A stretch of 64,000 nucleotides of DNA from Candidatus Dormibacteria bacterium (GTDB lineage Bacteria; Chloroflexota; Dormibacteria; Aeolococcales; Aeolococcaceae): assembly GCA_050734185.1 (NCBI GenBank), contig JBOHUE010000157.1, positions 1,430 through 65,429 of the forward strand, in the 5' to 3' direction. The notes below the pieces were generated by a model that was not told where the DNA came from, did no database searches, and saw nothing but the letters and a program-made list of their open reading frames with translations. This document shows, one piece after another, positions 1,216-58,653 of this stretch; positions within the stretch are counted from its first letter, which is position 1, and each line of letters opens with the position of its first letter. Both the position numbers and the translations under genes were made by a program.

Positions 1216-3402
1216 ATGCCCGCAGGCCGCGACGCCCGCACACGGAAACGCAGAGACACGATCAGCATCGGCGCATCACTGCTTGCGGTCGCGGCGGCCG
1301 TCGTATCGGGACTGTCGAGCACGGCGCTCAGCGCGCACGCGGCGGCGAATGCGAACACCCCTGCGAGCCCGGCGCACGACTCGCCGGCGATCCCGGCGGA
1401 ATGCCAGACCGGGACGGACTTTGTCAGCGTCGCGTGGCAGGGCCCGACGTGTCAGGCGCACGGTAAGTTCGTTGTCCGGTTGCGCAGCGGCCACGCCCTG
1501 ACGGTGGCACCACCCGACACCATTGCGGCGTTCGCCAGTGCTGCCCCGCCGGCCGCGGCAAACCCCGCACCCGCGAGCGGTTCGCTGGCGTGCGTCAACC
1601 CGTCGACGCATACGCACATCGAGCTCTGGTACGCGCACTTCGCCGGTCAGGCCGACAACATCGGCGGGCACGCGAGCGACGTGCAGACGATGTTCCAGCA
1701 GGTCGATTCGAGCTACGTCGACTACGACTCTCGCTACTACAACGGTCCGGACATGCACCTGTACGTGGAGTGCGATTCCTTCGGCAACCCCATCGTCCAC
1801 GACATCGGTCTGTCGACGACACTCAACGGCAGTGACTACTCCACGATCGTGAGTGACATGGAGGGCCAGGGACACTCGAGCAACCTCGCGCACTACTGGG
1901 TGTGGACCGACGGCAATCCCACGTCGGGCTACGCAGGGCAGAGCAGCGTGGTCGGCGACGACTCGGCGGGGTCGGGCAACGCGATCAACTCCACCAACGC
2001 ATATTCGATCAACTACGGATACACCGCGGGCTCCGGAGGCGCGTCGATCTTCGCGCACGAAAACGGCCACGCCATGGGCGCCGTGCAGCTGAGCGCACCT
2101 GACTCCACCGGAGCCTGGCACTGCACCGACGGCCAGGATGTCATGTGCTACAACGACGGCGGTCCCAGCGCGAACGCATTCACCACCGGTGACTGCGCCA
2201 ATTCGCCAATCGGCACTGCACTGCTCGACTGCCATCGCGACAACTACTTCAATCCGTGTCCCGCACCGGGAACCTACCTCTCCGGCCACTGGGACGTCGC
2301 GAGCACCAACAACGCCTGGGTCTCGGTGAACGCGCTGCCGAGTCAAACGGGATTCCAGGGCACGCCACAGAGCGTCATCCACGGGACCAACGCGCTCCTG
2401 ACCGTGTATGTCTACGGGGCGAGCTGCGGCGGCGGCACCGTCACGTTCACGTATGGCGGTGGCACGCTGGGTACGTCAACAGTCGGCAGCAATGGACTGG
2501 CGGCGGTGTCGCTGGCGTCATTGCCGTTGGGCCATTACTCGGTCACCGCGCAGTTCAGCGGCTCTGCATATGCGGCGGCGAGCTCCACGTCATCGCCCGC
2601 GACGTTCGACGTCGTTGCCTCCCCCTTCAAATCCCTCGTGGTCGCGGACGCGTATGGCGGCGTGTTCCCGGCTCAGGCGTCGGCGCTGGGTGTACAGGCC
2701 GACATGTGGCCGGGGTGGGGAATGGCGCGCGGCATGGCCCTGAGCTCTGACGGGAAGGGCGGGTACGTGGTCGACGCCTGGGGCGGTGTGCACCCGTTCG
2801 GCACTGCGCCGCCCGTCACCGGCACCGGCTTCTGGCCTGGGTGGGACATCGCTCGTGGGATTGCGCTTCGCGCTGACGGGAAGAGTGGCTACGTGCTCGA
2901 CGCCTGGGGCGGCCTGCATCCGTTCGGCGCCAGCGGCGACATGCCGCCGTACGTCACCGGGACCACCGGATACTGGGCCGGCTGGGACATCGCACGCGGC
3001 GTGGTCCTGCGGTCGGACGGCGTGAGCGGCTACACGCTCGACGGGCTGGGCGGCGTGCACGCCTTCGGTGGCGCTCCCACCCTGGGCATCTCGGCGTACT
3101 GGCCGGGTTGGACGATCGCGCGCGGATTCACGCTTGACCCGGATGGAGCCGGCGGCTATGTGCTCGACGGTCTCGGCGGGCTGCATCCGTTCGGCAATGC
3201 CACCACTGTCAGCATCTCGGCCTACTGGTCGAGCTGGGACATCGCACGGTCGGTGGTGTCAGTGCCCGGGAACGGATCACAGGGCTGGGTGGTCGATGGA
3301 TTCGGCGGCCTTCATCAGTACGGCGGCGCGCCGTCGCCGGCGGGCTCCCCGGCCGGATACTGGCCTGGCCAGGACACAGCCCGGGCCGTCGCGGCCAGCT
3401 AG
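1216..3402 (+). CDS. secreted metzincin-like zinc metalloprotease with Ig-like domain and C-terminal 42-aa tandem repeats
   Basis: GAGGAA Shine-Dalgarno 6 nt upstream of ATG; signal-peptide-like N-terminus (basic n-region, hydrophobic core, AHA). HENGH zinc motif at nt 2056-2070 followed by Met-turn-like DVMCY; Ig-like TVTFTYGGG...YSVTAQFSG segment; about 5.5 copies of the GYVLDxWGGxHPFG...YWPGWDIARG repeat at the C-terminus. Confidence 0.75.
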   Translation: MPAGRDARTRKRRDTISIGASLLAVAAAVVSGLSSTALSAHAAANANTPASPAHDSPAIPAECQTGTDFVSVAWQGPTCQAHGKFVVRLRSGHALTVAPPDTIAAFASAAPPAAANPAPASGSLACVNPSTHTHIELWYAHFAGQADNIGGHASDVQTMFQQVDSSYVDYDSRYYNGPDMHLYVECDSFGNPIVHDIGLSTTLNGSDYSTIVSDMEGQGHSSNLAHYWVWTDGNPTSGYAGQSSVVGDDSAGSGNAINSTNAYSINYGYTAGSGGASIFAHENGHAMGAVQLSAPDSTGAWHCTDGQDVMCYNDGGPSANAFTTGDCANSPIGTALLDCHRDNYFNPCPAPGTYLSGHWDVASTNNAWVSVNALPSQTGFQGTPQSVIHGTNALLTVYVYGASCGGGTVTFTYGGGTLGTSTVGSNGLAAVSLASLPLGHYSVTAQFSGSAYAAASSTSSPATFDVVASPFKSLVVADAYGGVFPAQASALGVQADMWPGWGMARGMALSSDGKGGYVVDAWGGVHPFGTAPPVTGTGFWPGWDIARGIALRADGKSGYVLDAWGGLHPFGASGDMPPYVTGTTGYWAGWDIARGVVLRSDGVSGYTLDGLGGVHAFGGAPTLGISAYWPGWTIARGFTLDPDGAGGYVLDGLGGLHPFGNATTVSISAYWSSWDIARSVVSVPGNGSQGWVVDGFGGLHQYGGAPSPAGSPAGYWPGQDTARAVAAS
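2638..3399 (+). repeat. in-frame coding tandem repeat, about 126-bp (42-aa) period, about 5.5 copies
   Basis: Repeated protein motif DIARGxxLRxDGxSGYVLDxWGGxHPFGxAP....YWPGW read directly from the translation of 1216..3402; copies differ at DNA level. Confidence 0.8.
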
Positions 3403-3431
3403 GGGCTCCTGAGGGCGGCATACTCCGCCTC

Positions 3432-4838
3432 ATGGCTACCGGCGAGGCCACAGTCCCGGTGCGCCGGGTTGGCCTGCGCGTACGCCTCAGCCCCTCTGCC
3501 GCGGTGCCGGTGCTCGTCATCGTCCTCGGCCTGCTCGCCTACCACCAGATCTACACGGTCTACCGGTTCGACACCCCGGTGCACGGTGACGGCGAGGGCT
3601 ACTACGCGTACCTCCCGGCGTGGTTCTTGTTCCACGACGCGGGCTTCAACTCTCTGATTCGTGATCACCTGCTGCCGGCGTACGCCGCGCTCGGCCATCA
3701 GCAGGCGTCGCAGTTCGGCTTCTCGCTGCAGGCGACCGGCAACTGGCTCGACAAGTACGGGGTCGGCGAAGCACTGCTGCTGCTGCCCTTCTTCGGCATC
3801 GGTCACGCGGTGGCGGTGTTCGCGGGCACGGCGGCGGACGGGTACACGAACGCCGAGGTCTACACGGTCGGTGCCGCGGCACTCGTCTACATGGCGGCGG
3901 GGCTGTTTGCGCTTCGCGCTGTGCTGCGGCGCTGGTTCCCCGAATGGGTGATCGTCACGACGCTGCTCGCGATCACGCTGGGCACGAGCCTCTTCGACTT
4001 CGCCACGTGGGAGTCGTTGGGCAACCATGCCTTCAGCTTCTTCGTGGTCGCGCTGCTGATGCTGGAGGCGTTCCGCTGGTACGAGCGGCCGCGGTCGTGG
4101 ACCGCTCCGCTGCTCATGGGCGCCCTCGCCGGACTGCTGCTCGACATCCGGCTGACCAATGCGGTGCTCCTCATCGCCGTGCCGCTCCTCGGAGTCGGGT
4201 CGGTGAAGCAGCTCCGCACACGCGGGCGGTTGCTGTGGGAGCAGCGTCTCAAGGTTGCAGCGGGGGCCGGCGTTGCGGTGCTGGTGTTCGTGCCGCAGAG
4301 CGTCGCGTGGTACATCGCGACCGGTCATGTGTTCGTCCGGTCGTATCCCGGCGAGTCATTCGACTTCCTGCACCCGCACCTGCTCGAGTCGCTGTTCTGG
4401 TTGCAACCGCACGGGCTGCTGCCGTACGCGCCGGTTCTCACGCTCGCGTTCGCCGGCCTCGTGTGGGCCTGGGTCAAGCGTCGCGACATCGCGCTGCCCG
4501 TCACGGCTGCGTTTCTCCCATTCTGGTACCTGGTGAGCTCGTGGTACGACTGGTCGTATTCGCAGTCATTCGGGCAGCGTGGCTTCATCGACGTGCTGCC
4601 GTTCCTCGCGCTGCCGCTCGCGTTTCTGCTCGCATCACTGCGCGCGCGCTGGGTGCGCGTCGCCGCCGTCGCCGTCACCGGTGTCATGGTGGGAGCAACG
4701 ACCGTGCTGATGGTCGCGTACTGGCAATACCGCGTGGCCGGCAACGGGCTCAACTGGACCGACTACGCGGCCATATTCCGGCACCCGCACCTGCTGTTCG
4801 GCCCGCCGCAGTTCCCCTCGTGGATGCCGCATCCATAG
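3432..4838 (+). CDS. polytopic membrane protein, GT-C superfamily glycosyltransferase-like (PMT/ArnT-like, presumably polyprenyl-phosphate-sugar dependent)
   Basis: About 11 predicted TM helices. First extracytoplasmic loop has acidic motif DTPVHGDGEGYYAYLPAWFLFHD resembling the DE/DEx loop-1 motif of GT39/GT83 enzymes. High GC3. Sits in the glycosylation cluster. Confidence 0.55.
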   Translation: MATGEATVPVRRVGLRVRLSPSAAVPVLVIVLGLLAYHQIYTVYRFDTPVHGDGEGYYAYLPAWFLFHDAGFNSLIRDHLLPAYAALGHQQASQFGFSLQATGNWLDKYGVGEALLLLPFFGIGHAVAVFAGTAADGYTNAEVYTVGAAALVYMAAGLFALRAVLRRWFPEWVIVTTLLAITLGTSLFDFATWESLGNHAFSFFVVALLMLEAFRWYERPRSWTAPLLMGALAGLLLDIRLTNAVLLIAVPLLGVGSVKQLRTRGRLLWEQRLKVAAGAGVAVLVFVPQSVAWYIATGHVFVRSYPGESFDFLHPHLLESLFWLQPHGLLPYAPVLTLAFAGLVWAWVKRRDIALPVTAAFLPFWYLVSSWYDWSYSQSFGQRGFIDVLPFLALPLAFLLASLRARWVRVAAVAVTGVMVGATTVLMVAYWQYRVAGNGLNWTDYAAIFRHPHLLFGPPQFPSWMPHP

Positions 4839-4854
4839 CTACACTCCCACGCCG

Positions 4855-6600
4855 ATGGCCGACGCGCGGCGCGTGAGCCCCGTGCTCATGCGACTTGTCA
4901 GGACGCTGCTGCCGATAGCGCTCTACCTCGGTGTCGCCTTCGCCCTCACCGCAGGCGTCTGGCATGACCCGGCGCACACATGGCCGGGACCGCAGGGAGA
5001 CGTCTACAAGTTCATCGACTTCATGTCGTGGGTGCCGCACGCAATCGCGCACGGCAAGGACCCCTTCTTCATGGGTGTGATCGACTATCCCGACGGCGTC
5101 AACCTGACATGGGAGACGCCCGCGTTGCTCGGCGACGTGCTGATCTGGCCGTTCACCGCGCTCCTCGGGCCGCTTCCCGCATACAACGTGTTCATCCTCC
5201 TGAGCATCACCCTCGACGGGTGGTGCACGTATCTCTGGCTGCGCCGGCATGTGCGCTCACCGTGGGCAGCCGCCCCGGCTGCGCTGCTCATCGCGCTCGG
5301 GCCCTGGGTGGCCGTGCACGCGCAGCAGCTCAACCTCATCTCGTTCTGGCCTCTCCCGCTGATCTTCATGGCGGCCGAGGATCTCCTCCGCGGGGAACGA
5401 AGCCGGGTGTGGACGGGGCTCGTGCTCGGCGTGCTGTTCGCGGTGCAGCTGTACCTCGCCGAAGAGCTCGCGGTCCTGGCCGCCATCGGCCTCGCGCTGG
5501 CGATCGTCGCCACCGTCCTCGCACTCGGCGCGAGCATCCGGCCCGCGATCCCCCGCGTCGTGGCGTCTGGAGCGATCGCGATTGCCACCGCGGTCGTGCT
5601 CACGGCGCCGCTGTTGATCTACCAGTTCAGAGGCCCGCGGCGCATCCACGGCATCATCCACCCCCCTGGTTTTTACGTCACCGACCTGCAGAACTTCCTC
5701 ATTCCCACGGGAGTCACGTGGGCGTGGCCGCAGTCGGTCACCGCGGCGGACGTGGGCGCGTGGAGCGGTCCGAGTGAGGCGGTCGGGTACATCGGCATCC
5801 CGCTGCTGCTGATTGCTCTGTACGCGGTGGTCCGATGGTGGCGCGAACCACTCGTCAGGATCGCCGGCCTGACCATCGCCGCGGCCGCAATCCTGAGCCT
5901 GGGGCCACATCTGCACATCGGCGGGGTCGACACCGGCATCCGCCTGCCGGGCGTGATCTTCAGCCGCCTGCCGCTGCTCGAGAACCTCATCCCGTCGCGC
6001 ATTGCGCTCATCACGGCGTTCGGGCTCGCGTTCCTGCTCGCGATCACGCTGGACCGCACGCTGCTGCGCAATCCGCTGCGCAGCGTGAGCACCGCGCTGG
6101 TGTCGGTTGTCGGCCTCGCCGCCATCGTCTCGATGGTGTCGCAGCTTCCGCTGCCGGCGTCGTCGACATCGATCCCGGCGTACTTCCAACCCGGCGGTGG
6201 CGCGACGCGACTCCCGGCGGGAACCGTCGCGCTGGTCGCACCGTATATCGATGACGGCGCCGTCTCACCCGTCGTCATGCTGTGGCAAGCTGAGAGTGAC
6301 TTTCACTTCGCGCTCACCGACGGTCTCGCCATCACCGCGGATGCGAATGGCAACGCAGCGTTTCTGCCGACGACGCCACTACGTCTGGCGTTCGACCAGA
6401 TCCAGCTCGAGGGCCATCTGCCCGCCGAGACCGCGGCGCTGCGAGAGAGCCTTCTGGCCACGATGCACGCCGACAACGTCAGCGTCATCATCGTCGGCCC
6501 CATGCAGCAGCGCGAGCTCGCGGTGGAATTCATCGACTGGCTCACCGGCCGTACCCCGGTGGACGGGGAGGACGTCAGCGTCTGGAGCGGGCCACCATAG
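4855..6600 (+). CDS. polytopic membrane protein with C-terminal soluble domain, YfhO/GT-C-like putative glycosyltransferase
   Basis: Multiple TM helices over about 400 aa, then a soluble C-terminal domain of about 150 aa. This architecture resembles YfhO-type polyprenyl-P-sugar-dependent glycosyltransferases. Family assignment not verified. Confidence 0.5.
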   Translation: MADARRVSPVLMRLVRTLLPIALYLGVAFALTAGVWHDPAHTWPGPQGDVYKFIDFMSWVPHAIAHGKDPFFMGVIDYPDGVNLTWETPALLGDVLIWPFTALLGPLPAYNVFILLSITLDGWCTYLWLRRHVRSPWAAAPAALLIALGPWVAVHAQQLNLISFWPLPLIFMAAEDLLRGERSRVWTGLVLGVLFAVQLYLAEELAVLAAIGLALAIVATVLALGASIRPAIPRVVASGAIAIATAVVLTAPLLIYQFRGPRRIHGIIHPPGFYVTDLQNFLIPTGVTWAWPQSVTAADVGAWSGPSEAVGYIGIPLLLIALYAVVRWWREPLVRIAGLTIAAAAILSLGPHLHIGGVDTGIRLPGVIFSRLPLLENLIPSRIALITAFGLAFLLAITLDRTLLRNPLRSVSTALVSVVGLAAIVSMVSQLPLPASSTSIPAYFQPGGGATRLPAGTVALVAPYIDDGAVSPVVMLWQAESDFHFALTDGLAITADANGNAAFLPTTPLRLAFDQIQLEGHLPAETAALRESLLATMHADNVSVIIVGPMQQRELAVEFIDWLTGRTPVDGEDVSVWSGPP

Positions 6601-6652
6601 CCGCGACCCTTTCCTATAATTCGCTGCCAATCGCCGGAGCGCAGGAGGCGCA

Positions 6653-7846
6653 ATGACTTTCCCCAACGACATCGTGATCATGGGTGGCTGCGGACACGTC
6701 GGCCTGCCGCTCGGGATCGCGTTCGCCTGCCGCGGTCTTCGCGTGGAGCTGTTCGACACCAATGCCGACGTCGTGCAGATGGTCAACGGCGGGCAGATGC
6801 CGTTTCGCGAGAATGGAGCCGATGGGGCGCTCGCCACCGTGCTGCGCGAGGGTCGTCTGACCGCCACCAGCGATCCCGCGTCGATCGCGCGTGCGGAGAA
6901 CGTGGTCGTGGTGGTCGGCACGCCGGTCAACCGCTATCTCAGCCCCGACATCGAGGCGGTGCCGCGCGCGCTGATGTCCGTCGCGGAACATCTCGTCGAC
7001 GGTCAGCTCATCGTGCTCCGCAGCACGGTGTACCCGGGTGTCACAGCGCTGGTCGAACGGCAGTTGCGCGATGCCAGCGCGTCAGTCGAGGTCTGTTTCT
7101 GCCCCGAACGGATCGCTGAGGGCCACGCGCTGGAGGAGCTGCACCAGCTGCCCCAGATCGTTGCCGCGCGCAGCCCGCACGCGATCGATCGCGCGAGCGC
7201 GCTGTTTCGCCAGCTCACCGATCACATCGTCGAGCTGTCGCCGGAGGAGGCGGAGCTGGCCAAGCTCTTCACGAACACCTGGCGTTACGTGAAGTTCGCG
7301 GCGGCCAACCAGCTGTTCATGATCGCCAACGACCGCGGCCTCGACTTCGAGCGCATCCGCGGTGCGATCACGCACATGTATCCGCGTGCGGCGGACATGC
7401 CCGGCCCCGGATTCTCCGCCGGCCCCTGCCTGTTCAAGGACACGATGCAGATCGCTGCATTCTCGGAAAACACGTTCACGCTGGGTCATGCCAGCGTCAT
7501 GATCAACGAGGGACTGCCGCTGTACGCCGTGGGTAAGCTGGAGCAGCGCTTCGACCTGTCGACGATGACGATCGGCATCCTCGGGATGGCGTTCAAGGGC
7601 GGCTCGGACGACACACGGGCGAGCCTCAGCTACAAGCTGAAGCGGCTGCTCAAACTCAAGGCTCTCGAAGTCCTCTGCACGGATCCCTACGTGTCGTCGG
7701 ACGACGACCTGACGCCGCTCGACGACGTGCTCGCGCGGGCGGACCTGCTCATCGTCGCGACGCCACACCCGGAGTACGCGGCGCTGCAGCCGGGCGTTCC
7801 CGTCGTCGATCTCTTCAACATTCTGGGACAGGGCGTCGTCATTTGA
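6653..7846 (+). CDS. nucleotide-sugar dehydrogenase (UDP-glucose/GDP-mannose dehydrogenase family)
   Basis: N-terminal Rossmann IVIMGGCGHVGLPLG; catalytic-region motifs FCPERIAEG and GFSAGPCLFKDT (equivalents of NPEFLxEG and GGSCFPKD); C-terminal UDP-binding domain. Confidence 0.85.
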   Translation: MTFPNDIVIMGGCGHVGLPLGIAFACRGLRVELFDTNADVVQMVNGGQMPFRENGADGALATVLREGRLTATSDPASIARAENVVVVVGTPVNRYLSPDIEAVPRALMSVAEHLVDGQLIVLRSTVYPGVTALVERQLRDASASVEVCFCPERIAEGHALEELHQLPQIVAARSPHAIDRASALFRQLTDHIVELSPEEAELAKLFTNTWRYVKFAAANQLFMIANDRGLDFERIRGAITHMYPRAADMPGPGFSAGPCLFKDTMQIAAFSENTFTLGHASVMINEGLPLYAVGKLEQRFDLSTMTIGILGMAFKGGSDDTRASLSYKLKRLLKLKALEVLCTDPYVSSDDDLTPLDDVLARADLLIVATPHPEYAALQPGVPVVDLFNILGQGVVI

Positions 7847-8598
7847 AGCCGCGCGTCTCGGTGGTCGTTCCCGTGCACAACGAGGGCGACGGCGTCACTG
7901 CGTTTCTCGAGCGACTGTTCGAGGCGCTGTCGCTTCCGGCTGAGGTGCTGTGCGTGTACGACGGCCCCGAGGACACCACGCTGCCGACGCTGCACCATGT
8001 TGCGCAACGCGAGCCGCGCTTGCGCGCCGTGCACAACACGTACGGGCGCGGCCCGGCGAACGCCATCCGCTTCGGCATCGACAACGCCATCGCGGATGTG
8101 GTTGTGGTCACGATGGCGGACGGCAGTGACGATCCGATGCAGATCGACCCCCTCACGCGGCTCGTCGAACGTGGCGTCGTGGTGGCGTGCGCCTCACGCT
8201 ACATGCGCGGGGGGCAGCAGGTGGGCGGCCCGTGGCTCAAGGGACGCATCTCGCGCACCGCAGGCGTCTCACTGCGGGTGTTCGGCAGAGTCGGGACGCA
8301 CGACGCCACCAACTCGTTCAAGGCGTATTCGCGAGCGTTCGTGCGCAAGGTCGGCATCGAGTCGGATGCGGGGTTCGAGATGGGACTCGAGATGGTCGCC
8401 AAGGCACGCCGGCTCCGGCTCCCGGTTGCCGAGCTGCCCACCATCTGGCTGGACCGTACGGGCGGTGTGTCCAACTTCAAGGTGCGCGCGTGGATGCCCC
8501 GCTACCTGCGCTGGTACTTGTATGCACTGGGGATGGGCAGGACGGACGCGCGCCGCGGCACGCAGCCGGACAGTTCTCTGGAGGCGGCGTCAGAGTGA
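7843..8598 (+). CDS. GT2 glycosyltransferase, polyprenol-monophosphate-sugar synthase (Ppm1/DPM1/CsbB-like)
   Basis: ATGA overlap with upstream gene; VSVVVPVHNE start and DGSDD (DxD-type) motif; about 250 aa, typical of the Ppm1 catalytic domain. Confidence 0.8.
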   Translation: MKPRVSVVVPVHNEGDGVTAFLERLFEALSLPAEVLCVYDGPEDTTLPTLHHVAQREPRLRAVHNTYGRGPANAIRFGIDNAIADVVVVTMADGSDDPMQIDPLTRLVERGVVVACASRYMRGGQQVGGPWLKGRISRTAGVSLRVFGRVGTHDATNSFKAYSRAFVRKVGIESDAGFEMGLEMVAKARRLRLPVAELPTIWLDRTGGVSNFKVRAWMPRYLRWYLYALGMGRTDARRGTQPDSSLEAASE

Positions 8599-9620: not shown

Positions 9621-9621
9621 T

Positions 9622-11738: not shown

Positions 11739-11762
11739 GGCGGGCCAAGTGTACCAGGCAGG

Positions 11763-14875: not shown

Positions 14876-14922
14876 CCTGCTCTCTGTACTCGCGGGCATC
14901 ATAGAGACTTTCCGCGTCAGCG

Positions 14923-16188: not shown

Positions 16189-17609
16189 CCCGCATCCTGG
16201 TCATCGCGCCATATCCGCCGGTGCGTGACGGCATTGCCGCGTACACGGTGCAGTCGGTGGCCCGCCTGCGTCACGCGGGCAATCACGTTGAGGTGCTGTC
16301 TCCGTACCCGTCCGCGGCACACCACCACCTGCCGCTCAACACCATCAACGGAGTGCTGCGGCTGATCCCGTACGTTCGCCGTTTCGACACGGTCCTCGTG
16401 CAGTACCACCCGGACATCTTCTTCCCGCGCTCGAGCAGCGCAGCGGAACGCGAGCGCATCGCCGCGGCCCTCACGCTCGTGTGGCGCAGCGCAGCGCACG
16501 TCGAGATTCGAGTCCACGAAGCTGATTACGCGCGGGCGCATCGCGGGCCGGCGTGGCTGGCGACGCGCGCGATGTGGCGCGCCGCGTCCCGGATAACGGT
16601 GCACACCGGCACCGAGCGGACACTGTTCCATCGAGCGTACGGCCTCCCGCTCGCACGCATCGAGGTGGAGCGTCACGGCAGCGACTTCGCCGTGCGCAGT
16701 GGCGACAGCCGTGATGACGCGCGTGCTCGGCTCGCGCTGCCGCGCGACCAGCTCATGTTTCTGTCGATCGGTTTCATCCAGCCGCACAAGGGCTTCGACC
16801 GGGCGATCCGGGCGTTCATCGCGAGTGGCGCCGCCGGATCGAGGGGGGCACGACTCGATGTCGTCGGTTCCGTGCGCGTCGAGGAACCGGCGTATGTCGC
16901 TCACCTGGAGGAGCTGCAGCGGCTCGCCGACGCGACCAGCGACGTGCATCTGCACGTGGGCTTCATCGGCGATGAGGAGTTCGATACCTGGATCGTCGCC
17001 GCGGACGTCATCGTGCTGCCGTATCGCCACATCTGGTCATCGAGCGTGATGGAGCGCGCCGCACTGTACGGCCGGCCCGTCCTCGCCGCAAGGGTTGGCG
17101 GCCTCGCCGACCAAGCGCGGCCGAACACCACCCTGTTCGACGACGACGCCGAGCTGGCAGCCGCCATGCGGCACATCGTTGCGGAGCGCGGCGTCGCCCT
17201 CGACACGAGTCCGGCGCCGCGCATCCCCTGGCCGGACCCCGAAACGGCCACGCGCGCCATCGTCGAAGACGAGGTGCGGAGCCGCGCGGCCGCCGAGCGC
17301 CGCGCTCTGTTCCCGAGTGACCGAAACGGCGCTGCGCCGCCCACCTCCACAAACGGCACGGCCCTCACCGGCGTGAGCGCACGGCTGCGCCGGCTCCCGC
17401 CACTGCAGCTGCCCGCCCCCGAGTCACCCCGGCCCGGCGCGACTCCGCTCAAGCGGTTGATCCAGCGTCTCACGCGCTGGCAGCTGGAGCCGATCGTGCA
17501 TCAGGTCAACGAGCTGCAGCGGGTCGTCGCCAGCACACTGGAGGACCGCCCGCTCGGGGAATCGGATCAGGCGCCCGACAGCCCGCGGACGCTGGTGTCG
17601 CCCCCGTAG
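16185..17609 (+). CDS. GT4-family glycosyltransferase with about 120-aa low-complexity C-terminal extension
   Basis: GTG start overlapping the upstream TGA; ILVIAPYPP N-terminus; C-domain motif VLPYRHIWSSSVMERAALYGRPVL. Confidence 0.75.
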   Translation: MTRILVIAPYPPVRDGIAAYTVQSVARLRHAGNHVEVLSPYPSAAHHHLPLNTINGVLRLIPYVRRFDTVLVQYHPDIFFPRSSSAAERERIAAALTLVWRSAAHVEIRVHEADYARAHRGPAWLATRAMWRAASRITVHTGTERTLFHRAYGLPLARIEVERHGSDFAVRSGDSRDDARARLALPRDQLMFLSIGFIQPHKGFDRAIRAFIASGAAGSRGARLDVVGSVRVEEPAYVAHLEELQRLADATSDVHLHVGFIGDEEFDTWIVAADVIVLPYRHIWSSSVMERAALYGRPVLAARVGGLADQARPNTTLFDDDAELAAAMRHIVAERGVALDTSPAPRIPWPDPETATRAIVEDEVRSRAAAERRALFPSDRNGAAPPTSTNGTALTGVSARLRRLPPLQLPAPESPRPGATPLKRLIQRLTRWQLEPIVHQVNELQRVVASTLEDRPLGESDQAPDSPRTLVSPP

Positions 17610-20113
17610 TTCGGAGAGAACACCGGCGGAGCCCCCGCGAACGAGTGGAACCCGCCGTAGTAGTCAACGACCCACCCCTGGGTGCTTGACCCCGGCACGA
17701 ACACGATGCCGCGGGCGATGTCCCAGGCGGGCCAGTAGCCGGTGATCTGCTGCGGGGTGAGCTGCGGCGGCGCGCTGCCGGGCACGCCGAAGGGATGCGG
17801 CCCGCCGAGGCCGTCCATCACATAGCCGCCGGTTCCGGCCGGATCGAGGGCGAACCGGTGGGCGATGTCCCAGCCGGGCCAGTACGCGGTCACGGCGGCG
17901 TTCGCCGGGATGTCGCCGCTCACGCCGAACGCGTGCACTCCCCCGAGACCGTCCAAGACGTAGCCGCTGACGCCATCCGACCGAAGCTGCACGTCGCGCG
18001 CGATGTTCCATCCCTGCCAGTACGCGGTCACCTGCACGCTCGGAGGCATGTCACCCGGCACGCCGAACGGATGCAGGCCACCGAGACCGTCGAGGACGTA
18101 GCCGCTCTGGCCGTCGGGGCGCACCGCGATGCCGCGAGCGATGTCCCAGCCGGGCCAATAGGCGGTCGCGGCAACCGGCGGCGCGGTGCCGAATGGGTGC
18201 ACCCCGCCGAAGGCGTCGAGCGTGTATCCGCCCGCGCCACCGGCGGCGACCGCGATGCCGCGGACGATGTCCCAGTTGGGCCATTCCGTGGCGCCGTACA
18301 TCGGCGCGGACGACCCGGGATCGAGGATGCCCGTCGCTGAAACGGCGTACAAGCCCTTGAAGGGAGTGCTGTACAGCGCCGCCGACGCGATGGTCGTCGT
18401 CGCCGTGTTGGTCGAGAACCCCGCATCCTGGGTCGCAGCCCGGGTGGCCGCCTGCACGGTGAAGGCATACGAGTGCCCGGGCACGCCGTTGAAGGGCATG
18501 CTCGTCTGGTTCGTCGTGCCGTAGCGAATCCAGCCGCCCGCAGCCTGGTCCCTGACCCAGACGATGTACGAGCTGGCGGGGACGCTCGACGGGTCGAGAC
18601 TCCAGGTGAGGGTGATCCCGGTCGTCGCCTGCAGCGGGGACAGCGCGCCCATCGTCGCGCTCGGCGCCATCTGACCGCTCAGCTGGGCGTTCCCGTGGAA
18701 GCCGGTCCACGATCCGGGCAAGATCTTCGTCGTTCCCGGGATGGGGAACGCCCGCACTGTCCAGGCGGTGCGCGCGCTGTTCGCCTGGCTGAGCGTGATG
18801 ACGCTCACCTTGCCGGCGCCCAGGTCCGCGAACGTCGGCGCCGCGAAGCCGCCGACGTCCAGCGGCCCTGCCGTCAGCGCCACCTGTCCCGCGTTGTTGT
18901 AGGCCCGCAGCGTCGCCCCGGCGATGATCCAGACGCCGTTGCTCGAGCCACTGCCGATCGGGCCGATTGCCGGATTCGACTCCAGGCTGCCCACGCCAGG
19001 ATGCGCCGGCCAGCCGGCGAGTGCGTTGCCGGTCCAGTCCCACGCGTAGAGCGAGCCGTCCTCGCTCGCCTCGACGACGTCGCGGCTCCCGTTGCCGAAG
19101 AGATCGCCGAGCGCGGGTGACGCAATGTTCATCGCCCCCGTTGACGCGGGCCAGCCGCCGAACGAGGACCCCGCACCGGTGAACCCATGCACCTGGTCGC
19201 CCGCGGGCCCGCTGTAGAGATTGCCGGTGCCCGCATAGATGGCGACGTTGTGGCCGTCGAGGTCCACAGCGGCGCTCGAGGACCAGGGAACCTGGTCGAT
19301 CGTGTGGGGCCAGCCCGGGATGACGCAGTTCGATTGGTTCGCGTAGCTGTTGGCCACGCACCCGGTCGGTCGGAAGGCCCAGTACACGCCGCCCGTCGGG
19401 TACGGCTCGTACAGCGGTCCGGAGGAATCGAAGCCGACCACGATGTCGAGCTGCCCGTGATGCTCGAGGTCGACCAGCGTGGGTGTATCGAACGCCGTGT
19501 CCCAGACGTGGAGCGGAAAGCCCGACAGCACGTTGCCGTAGCGATCCCACGCCCAGAGATGCTGGTCCCACGCAGCCGCCACCAGCTCCTTGTGGCCGTC
19601 ACCAAAGAGGTCACCCACGGCGACACCACCGAACACACCGGGATTCACGCCGGGTCCAGGTGGGTCGGTGTGCTGCGGCCATCCCGGGAACACCGATCCG
19701 TCGCCGTTGAAGACATAGATGTAGCCCGCCTCGGAGGTGGCGATCACCTCGTCACGCCCGTCGCCGGTGAGGTCGGCGACTGTTGGAGTGCTGTGGATGG
19801 GGCCACCGATGTACTGGGGCCAGCCCGGGAGCACCGCGCCGGTGACGCCATCGAACGCCCACACGCTGCCGTCGGGGAAGCCGGCCACGACCTGCTTGCG
19901 CCCGTCACCGAAGAGGTCGGCGACCGTTCCTCCGCCGAACGGCTCCGACGAGATCCCCGACGGCGGGCTCGACTTACCGGGCGCGACGTGGACGGTGGCG
20001 GACCAGCTCGCGGTCAGCGTCGGCGGCGCTGCAGGGGCCGGCGTGCTGCCACCAGCGCCGGTTGCGAACACGTAGGCCGACAGGACTGCGGCACTCCACG
20101 AAAACGCCCCCAT
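17567..20113 (-). CDS. secreted FG-GAP-repeat beta-propeller / FN3 / 42-aa-repeat protein
   Basis: Signal peptide; seven FG-GAP-like Ca-loop repeats (VADLFGDGRKQVVAG, VADLTGDGRDEVIAT, VGDLFGDGHKELVAA ...), each followed by a GWP motif; fibronectin-III-like segment (ITLTWSLDPSSVPASSYIVWVRD...YAFTVQA); six C-terminal copies of the 42-aa repeat. Confidence 0.8.
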   Translation of the reverse strand: MGAFSWSAAVLSAYVFATGAGGSTPAPAAPPTLTASWSATVHVAPGKSSPPSGISSEPFGGGTVADLFGDGRKQVVAGFPDGSVWAFDGVTGAVLPGWPQYIGGPIHSTPTVADLTGDGRDEVIATSEAGYIYVFNGDGSVFPGWPQHTDPPGPGVNPGVFGGVAVGDLFGDGHKELVAAAWDQHLWAWDRYGNVLSGFPLHVWDTAFDTPTLVDLEHHGQLDIVVGFDSSGPLYEPYPTGGVYWAFRPTGCVANSYANQSNCVIPGWPHTIDQVPWSSSAAVDLDGHNVAIYAGTGNLYSGPAGDQVHGFTGAGSSFGGWPASTGAMNIASPALGDLFGNGSRDVVEASEDGSLYAWDWTGNALAGWPAHPGVGSLESNPAIGPIGSGSSNGVWIIAGATLRAYNNAGQVALTAGPLDVGGFAAPTFADLGAGKVSVITLSQANSARTAWTVRAFPIPGTTKILPGSWTGFHGNAQLSGQMAPSATMGALSPLQATTGITLTWSLDPSSVPASSYIVWVRDQAAGGWIRYGTTNQTSMPFNGVPGHSYAFTVQAATRAATQDAGFSTNTATTTIASAALYSTPFKGLYAVSATGILDPGSSAPMYGATEWPNWDIVRGIAVAAGGAGGYTLDAFGGVHPFGTAPPVAATAYWPGWDIARGIAVRPDGQSGYVLDGLGGLHPFGVPGDMPPSVQVTAYWQGWNIARDVQLRSDGVSGYVLDGLGGVHAFGVSGDIPANAAVTAYWPGWDIAHRFALDPAGTGGYVMDGLGGPHPFGVPGSAPPQLTPQQITGYWPAWDIARGIVFVPGSSTQGWVVDYYGGFHSFAGAPPVFSPNYGGDTSVRGLSGA
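17570..18386 (-). repeat. in-frame coding tandem repeat, 42-aa period, about 6 copies
   Basis: Same GYVLDGLGGxHPFG...AYWPGWDIARG unit as in 1216..3402, read from the translation. Confidence 0.8.
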
Positions 20114-20250: not shown

Positions 20251-21408
20251 ATGGCGGATACGCCCTTGCGGCTCTGCGTCGAAGCAAACGTCATCTGCGC
20301 GACACATCAAAGTGGCGTCGGCCACGCGGCCCAGGGGTTGATCACCGCGCTGGTGCGCGACACCGAAGCGCAACAGCATGTGCACGTCGTGCTGATCGTA
20401 CCGCTGCGCGGTGCTGCACGACTGCAGCGCGTGGGACTCGGCTCTGTGTCGCGACTCACGATACCGCTGCCGCTCCGTGGCTACGAGCGGTGGGCGGCAG
20501 TGCCGGTGTTGCCACCACTGGACGTGTTGTTCGGCCGCGGCACATACCTCTTCACGAACTACGGCAACTGGCCGTTGCTGCGCTCGAGATCGTTGACGAT
20601 CATTCACGACGTCGCATTTCTCCGCCACCCTGCGACCGTCGAGGAGCGCACCGGCGCCAGGCTGCGTCACAACGCACGGCGATGGGCGCACCGCACGTCG
20701 ATGGTGCTCGTGCCCTCGGAGTTCTCGCGCACCGAGCTGAGCGCATGCCTCGATCTCGATCCGGCGCGCATTGCGGTGATGCCGCTCGGCGTCGACACCA
20801 CGATCTTCTTCCCGCGCCGTGCCGACGAGGTGCACGCGACGCTGCGCCGCCTCGGGCTGTCTCCGGGGTACGTGCTGTATTTCGGCAACATCGAGCCGCG
20901 CAAGAACCTGGCACGGCTTGTGCGCGCCTACGGCGCTGTCGATCGCGAGCTGCAGCAGCAGCACCCCCTGGTGCTCGCCGGCAGCACCAGCTGGAGAGCG
21001 GAGGAGATCGAGCGCGAGATCGCGAACGCGCAATCGCGCGGATACAGAGTCGAGCGGCTTCCGGGCCGCATCAGCGACACGGATCTCCCGGCGCTGCTCA
21101 GCGGCGCGGCGATGCTGGCGCATCCGTCGCTGTACGAGGGGTTCGGACTGGTACCGCTGCAGGCGATGGCGTGCGCCACGCCGGTGCTCGTCTCCAATCG
21201 TGCAGCCATGCCCGAGGTCGCCGGCGGCGCCGGGTTGTACGTCGATCCCCTGCAGGAGGACGACATCACGCGCGGCATCGAGACGTTGTTGACCGACGCC
21301 GGCCTGCGCGCATCGCTGAGCGCCGCCGGCCGGTTACGCGCGTCCACCTTCACGTGGCAGCGCACGGCCACCAGCTTTCTGGACGCCGTGCGGACCCTCA
21401 ACACGTAG
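20251..21408 (+). CDS. GT4-family glycosyltransferase
   Basis: C-domain motifs GYVLYFGNIEPRKN and SLYEGFGLVPLQAMACATPVLVSN (EX7E); track ORFs 20187..21923 and 20158..21123 are overlapping artefacts. Confidence 0.8.
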   Translation: MADTPLRLCVEANVICATHQSGVGHAAQGLITALVRDTEAQQHVHVVLIVPLRGAARLQRVGLGSVSRLTIPLPLRGYERWAAVPVLPPLDVLFGRGTYLFTNYGNWPLLRSRSLTIIHDVAFLRHPATVEERTGARLRHNARRWAHRTSMVLVPSEFSRTELSACLDLDPARIAVMPLGVDTTIFFPRRADEVHATLRRLGLSPGYVLYFGNIEPRKNLARLVRAYGAVDRELQQQHPLVLAGSTSWRAEEIEREIANAQSRGYRVERLPGRISDTDLPALLSGAAMLAHPSLYEGFGLVPLQAMACATPVLVSNRAAMPEVAGGAGLYVDPLQEDDITRGIETLLTDAGLRASLSAAGRLRASTFTWQRTATSFLDAVRTLNT

Positions 21409-21507
21409 CCCACCATCCGCAACGACGTTGTTACGACGCCATCATTTCGTTCAGGCGGTTCACACCGACCATGCAACGGGCGGTATCGATAATCGCAGGA
21501 GCATGGT

Positions 21508-23730
21508 GTGGCGCAGCACGGCGGTACAGGTCGCAGTTGGCACAAACTGGCTGCGCTCGCACTCGCCGGCGCGGTGGTCACCGTCCTTGCGCCCACCGGT
21601 ATCACCGCGCACGCCGACACCGCACACTCACTCGTCACCGCTGGGGCGCCGCTGGCCATCGCCGGCGCCGTGGCGCCGGGCATCATCGACAACAACCTGT
21701 GCTCGAGTCATCCGTACGGGACGGTGATGATCAGTGGCGCGTCGTGGGCCGGCGGCCTGGGACATCCGCCGTCGTCGGGTGGCGCGACGTTCGATGTGTC
21801 CAGCAACTGGGACGGCTCGTCGTGCTGGCGCAGCGAGGAGCCGACCGACGGCAGGGACAGCTACGGAACGCAGTACCAGTGCACCGAACTGGCGATGCGT
21901 GTTGCCGACCTCGAGTGGGGTGAGGGCAGCGAGAGAGCGTGGTCGGCGGCAGGCTGGACCGGCGACGGTTACAGCATGTTCGACGCCGGCCCCAGGCTTG
22001 CTGTCCCGCTCGTGGCGACGCCCAACGGCTCAGGATCGCTGCCGAGTCCAGGCGACATCATGGTGTGGGACGCAACGCCGAGTGACACCACCGGCCACGT
22101 TGCGGTGGTCGAGCGAGTCGACACGGTGGCGCAGCGGGTCTGGGTCGTCAGCCAGAACAGCTACGCCGCCGAATATGGTCTTCCCTACTCCGGCACCACC
22201 ATCGATCCGACAGCTCAGTTTGGTCTTCCGCTGCGCGGTTGGCTCGGCAGTCCGCGGCCGACGCGCGGTGTCGCGCTGCGCAGCGACGGTGTATCGGGAT
22301 ACGCGCTCGACGGTTGGGGTGGCGTGCTCCCGTTCGGCGGTGCACCGCCGCTGAGCGTCAGCGCGTACTGGCCCGACTGGGACATCGCACGCGGGATGGC
22401 AATGCGCGCCGACGCGTCCGGCGGATACGTCCTCGACGCCTTCGGGGTCCTGCATCCCTTTGGCAGCGCGCCGGATGTCGCCATCAGCGCGTACTGGCCC
22501 GGGTGGGACATCGCCCGCGCCGTCGTGCTTCGATCCGACGGTGTGAGCGGGTACGTTCTCGATGGTCTCGGCGGCCTGCATCCCTTCGGCGGCGCGCCCT
22601 CGGTGGCGATCAGCGCGTACTGGCCGGGCTGGGACATCGCGCGTGCCGTCGTACTCCGGCCGGACGGCGTGAGCGGCTACGTTCTCGACGGACTCGGCGG
22701 CCTCAATCCATTCGGCGGCGCGCCGTCGGTCGGCGCCACCGCGTACTGGCCGTCGTGGGACATCGCCCGTGCCGTGACGCTGGTGACCGACAACAGCAAT
22801 CCACATGTGCCGGCGAACTCCGGCTGGACGCTCGACGGCTGGGGCGGCGTGCACCCGTTCGGCGGTGCGCCGGCCGTCGACTTCCCAGCAAATCCGTACT
22901 TTTCCGGTCGCGACGTCGCCCGCGGCATCGCCTTTCAACCGTTGATGGACGCCGGTGTGACGGTCGACGGCCGGTCGACCCCCGCAGCGTTTCGCGTCAC
23001 ACCGCCTGTCCGTGCACTCGCGTACAAACCCGGGACGAGCAGCGGCTACCTGCTGGATGGCTACGGAGGCCTCACGCCGTTTGCCGGAGCGCCCGCTCTC
23101 TCGGCTGCGTCGGCGAAACCGCGCTGGCCGGAGTGGGACATCGCGCGCGGCGTCGCTCTTCGCGCCAACGGGACGAGCGGTTACGTGCTCGACGGCTTCG
23201 GCGGCCTGCACCCGTACGGCGGGGCGCCGAACGTGGTCATCACCGGGTACTGGCAGGGCCACGATCTCGCACGCGGAGTGGTGCTCCGGGCTGATGGCGT
23301 GAGCGGCTACGTGCTGGACGCGCACGGCGCGCTGTGGCCGTTCGGCGGCGCACCCGCGATCGCGACGACGACCACCTGGTCGACCGACGTCGCCCGCGGA
23401 GTCGTGCTGACGTCGAATGGGACGGGTGGCTACGTGCTCGACGCATATGGTGGCGTGAATCCGTTCGGCTCTGCGTCGGCGAGTGCAGCGCCCATGTGGC
23501 CCGGATGGGACCTGGCCCGCAGCATCGCGCTCCTCACCGATACGAGTGGATACATCCTCGACAGCTGGGGCGGCGTGCACCCGTTCGGCGGCGCGCCACT
23601 CCTGCCCGGCGCCCGCTACTGGCCGGGGTCCGACGCCGCGCGAGGCATCGCGCTCTCCGGGTCATCGACCGCACAGTCGCCGTCGGGCACCGTCGCCTAC
23701 CTCAACGGAGCGACGAGCAGCGTCTCGTAG
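21508..23730 (+). CDS. secreted CHAP-domain amidase/peptidase with 12 C-terminal 42-aa repeats
   Basis: Signal peptide; CHAP catalytic Cys context YQCTELAMRVADL (aa about 125) and His context GHVAVVERVD (aa about 197); then about 12 tandem copies of the 42-aa repeat. Confidence 0.8.
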   Translation: MAQHGGTGRSWHKLAALALAGAVVTVLAPTGITAHADTAHSLVTAGAPLAIAGAVAPGIIDNNLCSSHPYGTVMISGASWAGGLGHPPSSGGATFDVSSNWDGSSCWRSEEPTDGRDSYGTQYQCTELAMRVADLEWGEGSERAWSAAGWTGDGYSMFDAGPRLAVPLVATPNGSGSLPSPGDIMVWDATPSDTTGHVAVVERVDTVAQRVWVVSQNSYAAEYGLPYSGTTIDPTAQFGLPLRGWLGSPRPTRGVALRSDGVSGYALDGWGGVLPFGGAPPLSVSAYWPDWDIARGMAMRADASGGYVLDAFGVLHPFGSAPDVAISAYWPGWDIARAVVLRSDGVSGYVLDGLGGLHPFGGAPSVAISAYWPGWDIARAVVLRPDGVSGYVLDGLGGLNPFGGAPSVGATAYWPSWDIARAVTLVTDNSNPHVPANSGWTLDGWGGVHPFGGAPAVDFPANPYFSGRDVARGIAFQPLMDAGVTVDGRSTPAAFRVTPPVRALAYKPGTSSGYLLDGYGGLTPFAGAPALSAASAKPRWPEWDIARGVALRANGTSGYVLDGFGGLHPYGGAPNVVITGYWQGHDLARGVVLRADGVSGYVLDAHGALWPFGGAPAIATTTTWSTDVARGVVLTSNGTGGYVLDAYGGVNPFGSASASAAPMWPGWDLARSIALLTDTSGYILDSWGGVHPFGGAPLLPGARYWPGSDAARGIALSGSSTAQSPSGTVAYLNGATSSVS
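22234..23727 (+). repeat. in-frame coding tandem repeat, 42-aa period, about 12 copies
   Basis: Read from the translation; the antisense 516-aa ORF 22030..23580 is an artefact of this GC-rich repeat. Confidence 0.8.
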
Positions 23731-43729: not shown

Positions 43730-43758
43730 TCCTCCACACGGAGCTCTCCGTATCCATA

Positions 43759-58648: not shown

Positions 58649-58653
58649 TTCGC

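Follow-up and report, generated by a model that had tools for sequence, protein, structure and literature searches.

Several modules are known to hold secreted enzymes at the bacterial cell wall. SH3b, LysM, choline-binding, SLH, CWB2 and LGFP domains all act as terminal, non-catalytic, repeated modules on secreted CHAP, M23, GH25, amidase or L,D-transpeptidase proteins, and SH3b, LysM and choline-binding modules often lie C-terminal to such enzyme domains. Beta-propellers are mostly protein-binding platforms. Six-bladed propellers include the NHL family (PF01436; blades of about 40-44 residues), with the sensor domain of the kinase PknD from M. tuberculosis (1rwi), and the eukaryotic, protein-binding YWTD/LDL-receptor class B propellers (nidogen 1npe, LRP4/LRP6, LDLR). 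Propeller lectins such as Ralstonia RSL (4csd), Aleuria AAL (5mxc) and SapL1 (6trv) are stand-alone proteins, and six equivalent sites are a usual trait of lectin propellers rather than of platforms for a single partner. To our knowledge there is no case of a six-bladed propeller serving as the wall-binding domain of a bacterial hydrolase. Full-text searches for such a domain, and for Dormibacterota together with CHAP or propeller, returned nothing relevant.

The window analysed here (the whole stretch of DNA, 64 kb) contains three genes, A, B and C, with a shared repeat of about 42 residues (Table 1). A single-repeat HMM was built from 20 hand-cut units and scanned in six frames over the whole 64 kb. 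The repeat is confined to these three ORFs, in which full units score E 1e-16 to 1e-25 apiece, while none of the remaining ORFs in the window falls below E 0.6. The first-pass annotation had counted about 5.5, 6 and 12 copies in A, B and C, and the HMM located the units accordingly: five full units in A (E 1e-16 to 1e-22), preceded by a partial one (aa 471-501) and followed by a single strand at the C-terminus; five full units and an N-terminal partial unit in B; and ten full units in C (E 1e-16 to 5e-25) with two degenerate ones (aa 469-499 and 714-740). In part of the array the repetition is visible at the DNA level, with a period of 126 nt (3.6 copies) in C and 138 nt (2.3 copies) in B.

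Table 1. Features of the 64-kb window (gene and domain coordinates in nucleotides of the window)
Feature	Position	Strand	Description
Gene A	1216..3402	+	signal peptide, HExxH zinc-protease-like region, Big_3_5 Ig-like domain (aa 383-466), C-terminal propeller
Propeller of A (aa 471-728)	2626..3399	+	six predicted blades: five full units of 42-47 aa, sixth composite
Glycopolymer synthesis/export cluster	3432..17609		between A and B
DUF6541 membrane protein	3432-4838		
Unknown ORF	4855-6600		
UDP-Glc dehydrogenase	6653-7846		
GT2	7843-8598		
Epimerase	8604-9620		
Wzt with Wzt_C	9622-10902	-	
Wzm	10908-11738	-	
Methyltransferase	11763-12974	-	
Unknown ORF	12975-13838	-	
GT4	13835-15058	-	
GT4 (GT4_14923)	14923-16188	+	
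GT4 (GT4_16185)	16185-17609	+	
Gene B	17567..20113	-	weak signal peptide, FG-GAP propeller region, fn3-like domain, C-terminal propeller
Propeller of B (aa 585-848)	17570..18361	-	59% identical to propeller of A
GT4 glycosyltransferase (GT4_20251)	20251..21408	+	directly upstream of gene C; adjacency repeated in L013
Gene C	21508..23730	+	signal peptide, CHAP, two tandem propellers
CHAP peptidoglycan amidase/peptidase domain of C (aa 119-217)	21862-22158	+	E 5e-12
Propeller 1 of C (aa 250-499)	22255..23004	+	five canonical blades and one degenerate; six three-strand sheets (predicted)
Propeller 2 of C (aa 500-740)	23005..23727	+	five canonical blades and one degenerate C-terminal blade (predicted)

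The motif read from the window agrees with the consensus of 1,432 blades in 344 proteins, which is DIARg[IVL][AV]LxPDGx[GS]GYVLDG[WYF]GG[LVI]HPFGgAPxVxxxaYWpGW. Eleven blade positions are more than 90% conserved, including D1, R4, D19, H25, W39 and W42, and each blade carries a near-invariant polar/aromatic set (D1, R4, D19, an aromatic residue at 21, H25, Y38, W39, W42). The identity from blade to blade is unusually high, at about 50%. When A, B and C were run against Pfam-A by hmmscan at E <= 1, none of the LGFP, choline-binding, SH3b, ricin-B and tectonin models appeared, in line with the first reading of the motif as distinct from these families, and NCBIfam was silent on the repeat region. 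The repeat has no match in Pfam-A (2025) or NCBIfam (2026), and neither single-sequence nor profile search found a match among PDB sequences at E <= 10. Where the region is annotated at all, it is mislabelled: members go by “YncE” or “ribosomal protein L24E” in the sources, and spurious RCC1_2 and DUF5818 fragments come from Pfam. We conclude that this repeat, as a predicted propeller blade, defines a genuinely new domain family, absent from the catalogues and of a functional kind already known.

The modules preceding the repeats differ among the three proteins. The CHAP domain proposed for C is confirmed (Table 1), while “metzincin protease” holds only weakly for A: Reprolysin_5 (M12) matches at E 2.5e-4, under the Pfam cut-off, and the zinc motif is HENGHAMGAVQ, with Q in place of the metzincin H or D, yet the orthologue in L001 narrowly clears the cut-off. 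Orthologues of A with the same architecture were found in L001, L004 and L058. For B, described at first as an FG-GAP/FN3 protein, the FG-GAP part is well founded (FG-GAP_3 repeats, E 2.8e-10) and the fn3 part is weak (E 0.014). Signal peptides had been claimed for all three proteins; they are clear by eye in A and C, but in B no charged n-region is present, while the L006 orthologue of B starts with a canonical signal peptide. Downstream of C, a tRNA-Lys adjoins a lone VirD4 gene, but housekeeping metabolism genes follow, and an integrative conjugative element is not supported.

The annotation had also anticipated six-bladed propellers, one or two per protein, and this is what structure prediction gives at high confidence. 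The AlphaFold2 model of A is a closed six-bladed beta-propeller (pLDDT 94.6, pTM 0.91). Its 18 strands make up six sheets, and the ring is closed by a velcro, in which the sixth blade combines the N-terminal strands B-D with the C-terminal strand “ARAVAA”. The repeat region of the C model (pLDDT 85-97) comprises 12 sheets, i.e. two tandem propellers, and its best Foldseek matches are tandem-propeller proteins. B is predicted by homology to form one six-bladed propeller as well; the blades of A and B are orthologous position by position, with 63% identity at the same position against 50% off-position.

The nearest folds are the six-bladed NHL and YWTD propellers. In predicted blade number and blade length this repeat agrees with NHL; however, the NHL profile has no match at E <= 1 in A, B and C, the profile search found no PDB sequence at E <= 10, and NHL repeats lack the WGG-x-HPFG and YWPGW motifs. 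The PknD domain is 18% identical and is borne by a kinase, not by wall hydrolases. Identity to the YWTD propellers is 10-14%, and the repeat does not match their profile (PF00058). Nor is it a Kelch blade, judged by the Kelch profile and by the four strands, GG doublet and conserved Y and W of that repeat. The resemblance to RCC1 blades suggested earlier was not borne out, since the window proteins have no RCC1 match, and short RCC1_2 fragments occur only in a sister family described below; RCC1 membership, which takes seven blades of 51-68 residues and an RCC1 profile (PF00415/PF13540), was rejected for this propeller. No sequence relationship to the propeller lectins was detected; those are stand-alone proteins, whereas this propeller is a module on enzymes.

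The family comprises thousands of proteins from soil and freshwater bacteria. At 50% identity these fall into about 2,000 clusters, for the most part from Dormibacterota and Acidimicrobiia, and a homologue is present in a cultured isolate of the latter, Salinilacustrithrix flava EGI L10123 (L068). A few matches are labelled diderm (Myxococcaceae, Burkholderiales MAGs) and may be mis-binned contigs or genuine. Among 117 proteins from 78 genome loci, arrays have 5 (n=41), 6 (n=55), 10 (n=7) or 15 (n=2) units, and the pattern is similar in the 344 database proteins, where the array is C-terminal in most cases (281 of 344). The partner enzyme domains, to which the propeller is C-terminal, are mostly peptidoglycan enzymes: CHAP, M23, GH25, Amidase_2, Polysacc_deac_1 (PG deacetylase), YkuD L,D-transpeptidase and YaaH-like GH18. 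Further partners are YvpB-like C39, Rv2525c, CAP, GH114, phosphodiester glycosidase, FG-GAP and proteases; the proteases, GH5, GH43, LCAT and cohesin are not obviously wall enzymes.

Since the propeller stands beside cell-wall-cutting enzymes in thousands of proteins, it probably represents a novel type of module for anchoring to the cell wall or its sugars, and the anchoring idea of the first-pass annotation fits this partner census. Partners, C-terminal position and signal peptides together give the architecture of a wall-targeting module, a terminal module on secreted peptidoglycan-active enzymes. The role would be that of SH3b, LysM, choline-binding, SLH, CWB2 and LGFP domains, whereas fold and sequence are unrelated to theirs and their Pfam models are unmatched. 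On balance we favour, with a fair degree of confidence, a non-catalytic module that would bring enzymes to the cell wall, or to one of its glycans, by multivalent binding; here the fold is predicted and the binding inferred.

In this proposal, all six blades would be passed from protein to protein together, a protein having one, two or three such sets, and the domain would serve to target proteins exported by the Sec pathway in monoderm Terrabacteria, above all Dormibacterota and Acidimicrobiia. From propeller topology, the near-invariant residues are expected on a single face of the disc, within the B-C and D-A loops, and therefore may form six equivalent shallow sites, like those of propeller lectins. 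The propeller would bind a repeating envelope glycan multivalently, either peptidoglycan strands or a secondary wall polysaccharide, and this binding would hold CHAP, M23, GH25, amidase, deacetylase, L,D-transpeptidase, CAP, protease and FG-GAP proteins at the wall, with higher avidity where two or three propellers are present. The conserved D/H/W residues could instead be purely structural, like the hydrogen-bond tetrad of WD40.

Another explanation is that the propeller is a protein-protein, surface-lattice or sensor module, which assembles the enzymes into a proteinaceous layer or complex and binds no glycan, comparable to the NHL sensor of PknD or to the YVTN propeller in an S-layer protein of archaea. 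A YVTN propeller from such an archaeal surface-layer protein (1l0q) is indeed the best Foldseek match, and protein binding is what propellers mostly do. However, the structural matches are all generic (identity <=18%, query-normalised TM-score <=0.64, E no better than 8e-6), the blade identity and the invariant set suggest six equivalent sites, and the partner enzymes act on peptidoglycan; we regard this explanation as improbable.

The same partners raise the idea of secreted bacteriolytic weapons like lysostaphin or LasA, with the propeller targeting the walls of competitors instead of the producer's own. The M23 partners, of which one goes under “LasA protease” in its source, would suit it, as would CHAP, the GH25 lysozymes and the many paralogues per genome, often in tandem arrays (six genes in L050). 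But L,D-transpeptidases, PG deacetylases and CAP proteins have wall functions of a housekeeping type, as do the FG-GAP proteins linked to a locus for glycan biosynthesis, and we consider the weapon idea very improbable. As for phages, there were no matches in 50,697 phage records and one weak match in IMG/VR, and therefore the domain is not a common endolysin module. Endolysins usually borrow the wall-binding modules of the host, and this near-absence from phages speaks against wall binding, although few phages of these phyla are known.

The wall anchoring favoured here leaves the choice of ligand, on which the neighbouring genes bear. The glycopolymer cluster reported around the three genes is real: DUF6541, UDP-glucose dehydrogenase, GT2, epimerase, Wzm, Wzt/Wzt_C, methyltransferase and four GT4 genes were found, with A, B and C all within the cluster or at its edges. 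The propeller may recognise the specific glycopolymer that this neighbouring cluster, dependent on an ABC transporter (GT4 pair, Wzm/Wzt with Wzt_C, methyltransferase), produces and anchor the enzymes to one lineage-specific secondary wall polysaccharide, as SLH does with pyruvylated wall polymer and CWB2 with PSII. The location of the genes agrees with this, and so does synteny: B-like FG-GAP and propeller proteins adjoin the GT4_14923/GT4_16185 pair in at least 11 of 78 loci, which span Dormibacterota, Acidimicrobiia and other Actinomycetota with varying gene order and orientation, and in the Dormibacterota and Acidimicrobiia loci beside B-like proteins the pair is 50-82% identical. Moreover, A adjoins DUF6541 in L001 and L004, and C keeps its GT4 neighbour in another locus (Table 1).

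However, synteny extends across phyla in the FG-GAP class alone; the adjacencies of A and C are limited to close relatives, so they may be merely inherited. More than 80% of the sampled family members are not beside these glycan genes. In reverse synteny from GT4_14923 homologues (>=45% identity), the window-type repeat was present in 3 of 60 metagenome loci within the flanks retrieved, and the propeller as an obligatory part of the GT4 glycan system was therefore ruled out. The partner enzymes, finally, are equally well explained by peptidoglycan itself. Of the earlier suggestion that the module targets the polymer made next door, the tie of B to the GT4 pair across phyla stands, while most members are elsewhere in the genome; we hold a cluster-specific ligand to be possible but doubtful.

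The reverse synteny test from the GT4 gene also led to a second uncatalogued propeller family, found in Acidimicrobiia and peat metagenomes, with 2,146 clusters at 90% identity, comparably large or larger. Its blade is approximately P-[IV]-V-G-I-A-x-x-P-D-G-x-G-Y-W-L-x-x-x-D-G-G-V-[FY]-x-F-G-D-A-x-[FY]-x-G-S, and it has no Pfam model but short RCC1_2, DUF5818 and L24e fragments only. The two families are homologous by hhalign (probability 96-98%, E 2e-9 to 4e-12, 242-245 columns, six blades in register), and direct HMM cross-matches were found between them; with 12 near-identical sister sequences the probability was only 33%, and the result became convincing with a more diverse alignment. They are about 20% identical, and the sister family lacks the DIAR, WGG-x-HPFG and YWPGW motifs. 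Its partners are M23, NlpC/P60, YkuD, 3D, VanY, Rpf-like, CHAP and CAP, the same class of enzymes, but in the members scanned the sister propeller is usually N-terminal to the enzyme domain, whereas the window-type propeller is usually C-terminal. In lineages without the window-type repeat, the FG-GAP protein beside the same GT4 carries the sister propeller in the same place (24 of 75 loci), which also favours a ligand from the cluster.

Dormibacteraeota have been described within a clade of monoderms from which SLH domains and CsaB were lost (bioRxiv 10.1101/2021.05.31.446380), a loss that would leave room for another anchoring module. Tentatively, and as an unlikely extension of wall anchoring, both propeller families might be the main non-covalent surface anchor of monoderm Dormibacterota and Acidimicrobiia, functionally replacing SLH/CsaB, with a conserved secondary wall polysaccharide from the widely conserved GT4-pair/Wzm-Wzt locus as ligand and the FG-GAP and propeller protein beside that locus as the ancestral dedicated partner.

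We know of no cultured representative of Dormibacterota. Acidimicrobiia are poorly studied, and the building and remodelling of the envelope in both groups are almost uncharted. The repeat and sister families would give an annotation handle on a large share of the surface proteome of these organisms, because the domain marks their peptidoglycan hydrolases, transpeptidases and deacetylases, and it merits a Pfam/InterPro entry. With it, the six-bladed propeller would join the known cell-wall-targeting folds, and affinity reagents against the envelope polymers of both groups could be developed from the domain.

An HMM was built from 20 repeat units cut by eye and aligned, and was searched against all stop-to-stop segments in the six frames of the whole window. 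The secreted proteins C (E 2.7e-195, 12 units), A (E 2.3e-94, 6 units) and B (E 3.3e-87, 6 units) were the only scorers, single full units reached E 1e-16 to 5e-25, and no fourth repeat ORF was found in the window (best remaining segment, E 0.6). This bears out the first-pass annotation, which had placed the repeat in these three proteins, and the translations of the three ORFs also match its description. In both A and B a partial unit opens the array on its N-terminal side, five complete units follow, and a single isolated strand ends it at the C-terminus; C contains ten full and two degenerate units. The arrays are partly visible in the DNA to Tandem Repeats Finder, which gives C a period of 126 nt and B one of 138 nt. 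Among 1,432 blades, D1, I2, A3, R4, G15, D19, G22, G23, H25, W39 and W42 are each more than 90% conserved, and Y16, an aromatic residue at 21, F27 and Y38 are likewise strongly conserved.

Features discussed in the text, in window coordinates unless a locus is named
Feature	Position	Strand	Remark
Gene A	1216-3402	+	
DUF6541 membrane protein	3432-4838		just downstream of A
581-aa ORF	4855-6600		no family match
Methyltransferase	11763-12974		
GT4 gene	13835-15058		
GT4_14923	14923-16188		first of GT4 pair
GT4_16185	16185-17609		second of GT4 pair
Conserved GT4/FG-GAP module	13835-17609, 18362-20113		second part: gene B upstream of its propeller
Gene B	17567-20113	-	
GT4_20251	20251-21408		
Gene C	21508-23730	+	
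tRNA-Lys (anticodon TTT)	23816-23886		
VirD4/TraG-type coupling protein	23887-25638	-	
Low-GC island	~40000-56000		GC 0.58-0.64 vs 0.67-0.71 elsewhere
524-aa deaminase-domain protein	40423-41997		in island
Two tandem HNH_2 endonucleases	44108-45082, 45079-46020		in island
1,572-aa sacsin/HATPase-like protein with NOV_C domain	49333-54051	-	in island
Histidine kinase with cyclic-nucleotide-binding domain	57251-59626	-	
AAA/SpoIIIAA-like ATPase with PTPase-like and R3H domains	59307-60965	-	adjoins histidine kinase
Sister-family gene	L100:7523-9922	-	six-blade repeat, no Pfam model; also L095-L150, proteins P0345-P0464

The repeat had been called unrecognised, and the available libraries agree: the repeat regions of A, B and C have no match at E ≤ 1 in Pfam-A (24,736 models) or NCBIfam (2026), and none at E ≤ 10 among PDB chain sequences, with either a single sequence or a 74-sequence profile as query. 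Literature searches found no paper on this repeat domain. None of the Pfam profiles of NHL, YWTD, RCC1, Kelch, LGFP, CW_binding_1, SH3b, ricin-B and tectonin matches, and the suggested analogy to RCC1 blades is not supported. Some pipelines may catch a generic propeller signal, since one relative is named “DNA-binding beta-propeller fold protein YncE” by its source.

The repeat domain of A, aligned with 73 relatives, was modelled by AlphaFold2 (mean pLDDT 94.6, pTM 0.91) as six sheets with eighteen strands in all. Its C-terminal strand (domain aa 252-257, ARAVAA) pairs with two N-terminal strands in a classic velcro closure, which explains the 5.5 repeats counted earlier. Fold matches include the NHL domains of TRIM71 and Brat and Kelch domains. 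The Foldseek matches are weak (best E 8e-6, query-normalised TM-score ≤ 0.64), so the predicted fold class is clear but none of the solved structures is closely related. Full-length C, modelled with 44 homologues, shows twelve sheets in the repeat region (pLDDT 85-97) and a poorly modelled CHAP part, and its top Foldseek matches are tandem two-propeller proteins (Aip1, LRP6 E1E2, UTP proteins). Detectable units among 117 repeat proteins from 78 genome loci number 5 (41 proteins), 6 (55), 10 (7) or 15 (2), with the same pattern in 344 database proteins. These copy numbers independently back the models and point to a six-blade module used once, twice or three times, as the first-pass annotation had proposed for one or two propellers per protein. 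The predicted fold is that of NHL/YWTD six-bladed propellers, but the repeat matches neither sequence profile. As every tested family profile fails while the domain looks like an NHL/YWTD propeller, we class the repeat as a new sequence family of known fold that probably serves a known kind of function, one to which this fold is not known to have been tied before. Blades of A and B are 63% identical at the same position and 50% at different positions, so propellers are passed on and shuffled whole, without blade-by-blade re-amplification.

A second six-blade family, here called the sister family (blade ~PVVGIAxxPDGxGYWLxxxDGGVFAFGDAxFxGS), has 2,146 relatives at E ≤ 1e-5 in a database search. 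Pfam has no model for it either and matches it just in short fragments (RCC1_2, DUF5818, L24e and SH3_YKFC), and sources mislabel its members as RCC1_2, DUF5818 or “ribosomal protein L24E”. Its partners are M23, NlpC/P60, L,D-transpeptidase, 3D, VanY, Rpf-like transglycosylase, PG deacetylase, CHAP and CAP. Given a diverse alignment, hhalign relates the domains of the two families with a probability of 96-98% (E 2e-9 to 4e-12); 242-245 columns align, and the six blades and the velcro closure stay in register throughout. With near-identical sister sequences the probability was only 33%. The sister HMM also directly matches some window-type proteins (E 1e-6 to 1e-8). Such scores can be inflated in repeat proteins, yet fold, position in orthologous proteins and partner set all coincide and point to homology. 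The sister HMM found no sister-type protein in the window.

A profile search of 1.84 billion 50%-identity cluster representatives gave 1,960 proteins at E ≤ 1e-3 (930 at E ≤ 1e-30), and the repeat region of C, used as query in a word-indexed search, gave 2,393 90%-identity clusters at E ≤ 1e-30. At least 530 stretches of species-representative genomes encode a relative. The great majority of the genome matches come from MAGs that carry the labels Dormibacterota, Acidimicrobiia, “Chloroflexota”, other Actinomycetota or Solirubrobacterales, the sole cultured isolate being Salinilacustrithrix flava; mis-binning may explain a handful of contigs assigned to Burkholderiales, Bifidobacterium or Acidiferrales. 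Closest to the window are Dormibacterota contigs (58-82% protein identity to loci L001, L012 and L013). Multiple copies per genome are common, often as tandem genes, for example six in one locus (L050).

Three concordant censuses divide the partner domains into two groups. The first comprises peptidoglycan enzymes: CHAP, M23, GH25 muramidase, Amidase_2, PG/polysaccharide deacetylase, L,D-transpeptidase, YaaH-like GH18, YvpB-like C39 peptidase and Rv2525c-like domains. The second contains CAP, FG-GAP and PQQ-like propellers, fn3, TIG and Big Ig-like spacers, subtilases, HExxH proteases, GH114 and phosphodiester glycosidase. Of the 344 database proteins, 82% have the propeller at their C-terminus. 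Such a place and such enzyme company are typical of SH3b, LysM, choline-binding and similar wall-targeting modules, from which the propeller differs in structure; modules of this type are near-absent from propeller proteins (one SH3_3 co-occurrence). As far as computation goes, the anchoring idea is supported.

The N-terminal modules proposed for the three proteins stood in part. In Pfam searches, CHAP of C (E 5e-12) and FG-GAP of B (E 2.8e-10) are solid, fn3 of B is weak (E 0.014), and the protease match of A (Reprolysin_5, E 2.5e-4) lies under Pfam's cut-off, which the orthologue in L001 narrowly clears. “Metzincin” overstates A because its zinc motif, HENGHAMGAVQ, lacks the third His or Asp of metzincins. 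Signal peptides, claimed for all three, are evident by eye in A and C; B has a hydrophobic core with no charged n-region, though its orthologue in L006 is canonical. The B ORF starts at window 20113 with MGAFSWSAAVLSAYVFATGAGG, and a stop codon lies just four codons upstream. The export signal of B may be atypical, or its start region may be hit by an assembly or sequence error.

The glycan cluster of the window is of the ABC-transporter-dependent type, with Wzm, Wzt with a carbohydrate-binding Wzt_C, a methyltransferase, four GT4 and one GT2 glycosyltransferases, UDP-glucose dehydrogenase, an epimerase and the DUF6541 protein. When its proteins were searched against the 78 genome loci, the GT4 pair (50-82% identity) adjoined a B-like FG-GAP and propeller protein in at least 11. 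Found in Dormibacterota, Acidimicrobiia and other Actinomycetota, these loci vary in gene order and orientation, which argues for selection on this linkage. Outside the window, A next to DUF6541 and C next to GT4_20251 occur only in close relatives (L001, L004, L013). In the reverse test, among metagenome loci encoding a GT4_14923 homologue (≥45% identity), just 3 of 60 contain the window-type repeat; a B-like FG-GAP protein nevertheless adjoins the GT4 gene in 24 of 75 loci, where its C-terminus bears the six-unit repeat of the sister family (~GYWL-x3-DG-x-VYAFGDA). That the ligand is specifically the polymer of the conserved GT4/Wzm-Wzt locus seems doubtful to us.

The module of GT4 pair and secreted FG-GAP protein, often also with the neighbouring GT4 and methyltransferase genes, recurs in Dormibacterota, Acidimicrobiia and peat-metagenome lineages, its GT4 proteins being 50-82% identical between phyla. 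The DUF6541 gene and the 581-aa ORF, which both follow closely downstream of A, are kept beside A-like or cluster genes in four loci (L001, L002, L004, L047), and may encode the cluster's GT-C-type transferase or polymerase/ligase. The tRNA-Lys gene lies directly between the end of C and a lone VirD4 gene, and in L013 the C orthologue, GT4 and VirD4 are arranged in the same way; no obvious conjugative element follows in the window, where the downstream genes are housekeeping. The low-GC island was probably gained by horizontal transfer, as a defence or mobile island.

In the model of A, DSSP assigns blade strands A (ARGIAL), B (GYVLD), C (LHPFG) and a short D. In standard propeller topology, the B-C and D-A loops lie on the same face; here they are G-W-G-G and Y-W-P-G-W-D-I in the blade consensus, which would place conserved Asp, His, Arg and aromatic residues on one disc face, six times over. 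Dormibacterota are reported to lack SLH/CsaB (bioRxiv 10.1101/2021.05.31.446380), and we infer that their envelope is monoderm. Given this envelope, the ~50% identity between blades and the enzyme partners, the propeller most likely binds a repeating wall glycan in a multivalent, lectin-like manner, which would retain exported enzymes at the wall, additional propellers giving higher avidity. We consider a wall or envelope-glycan targeting module the rather likely role, and rate a protein-binding, anti-competitor or catalytic role lower.

Such a role is unsurprising in principle, modular wall-targeting domains being common. The propeller family is large, uncatalogued and structurally distinct from known wall anchors; it deserves a Pfam entry and is informative on the envelopes of poorly known phyla.
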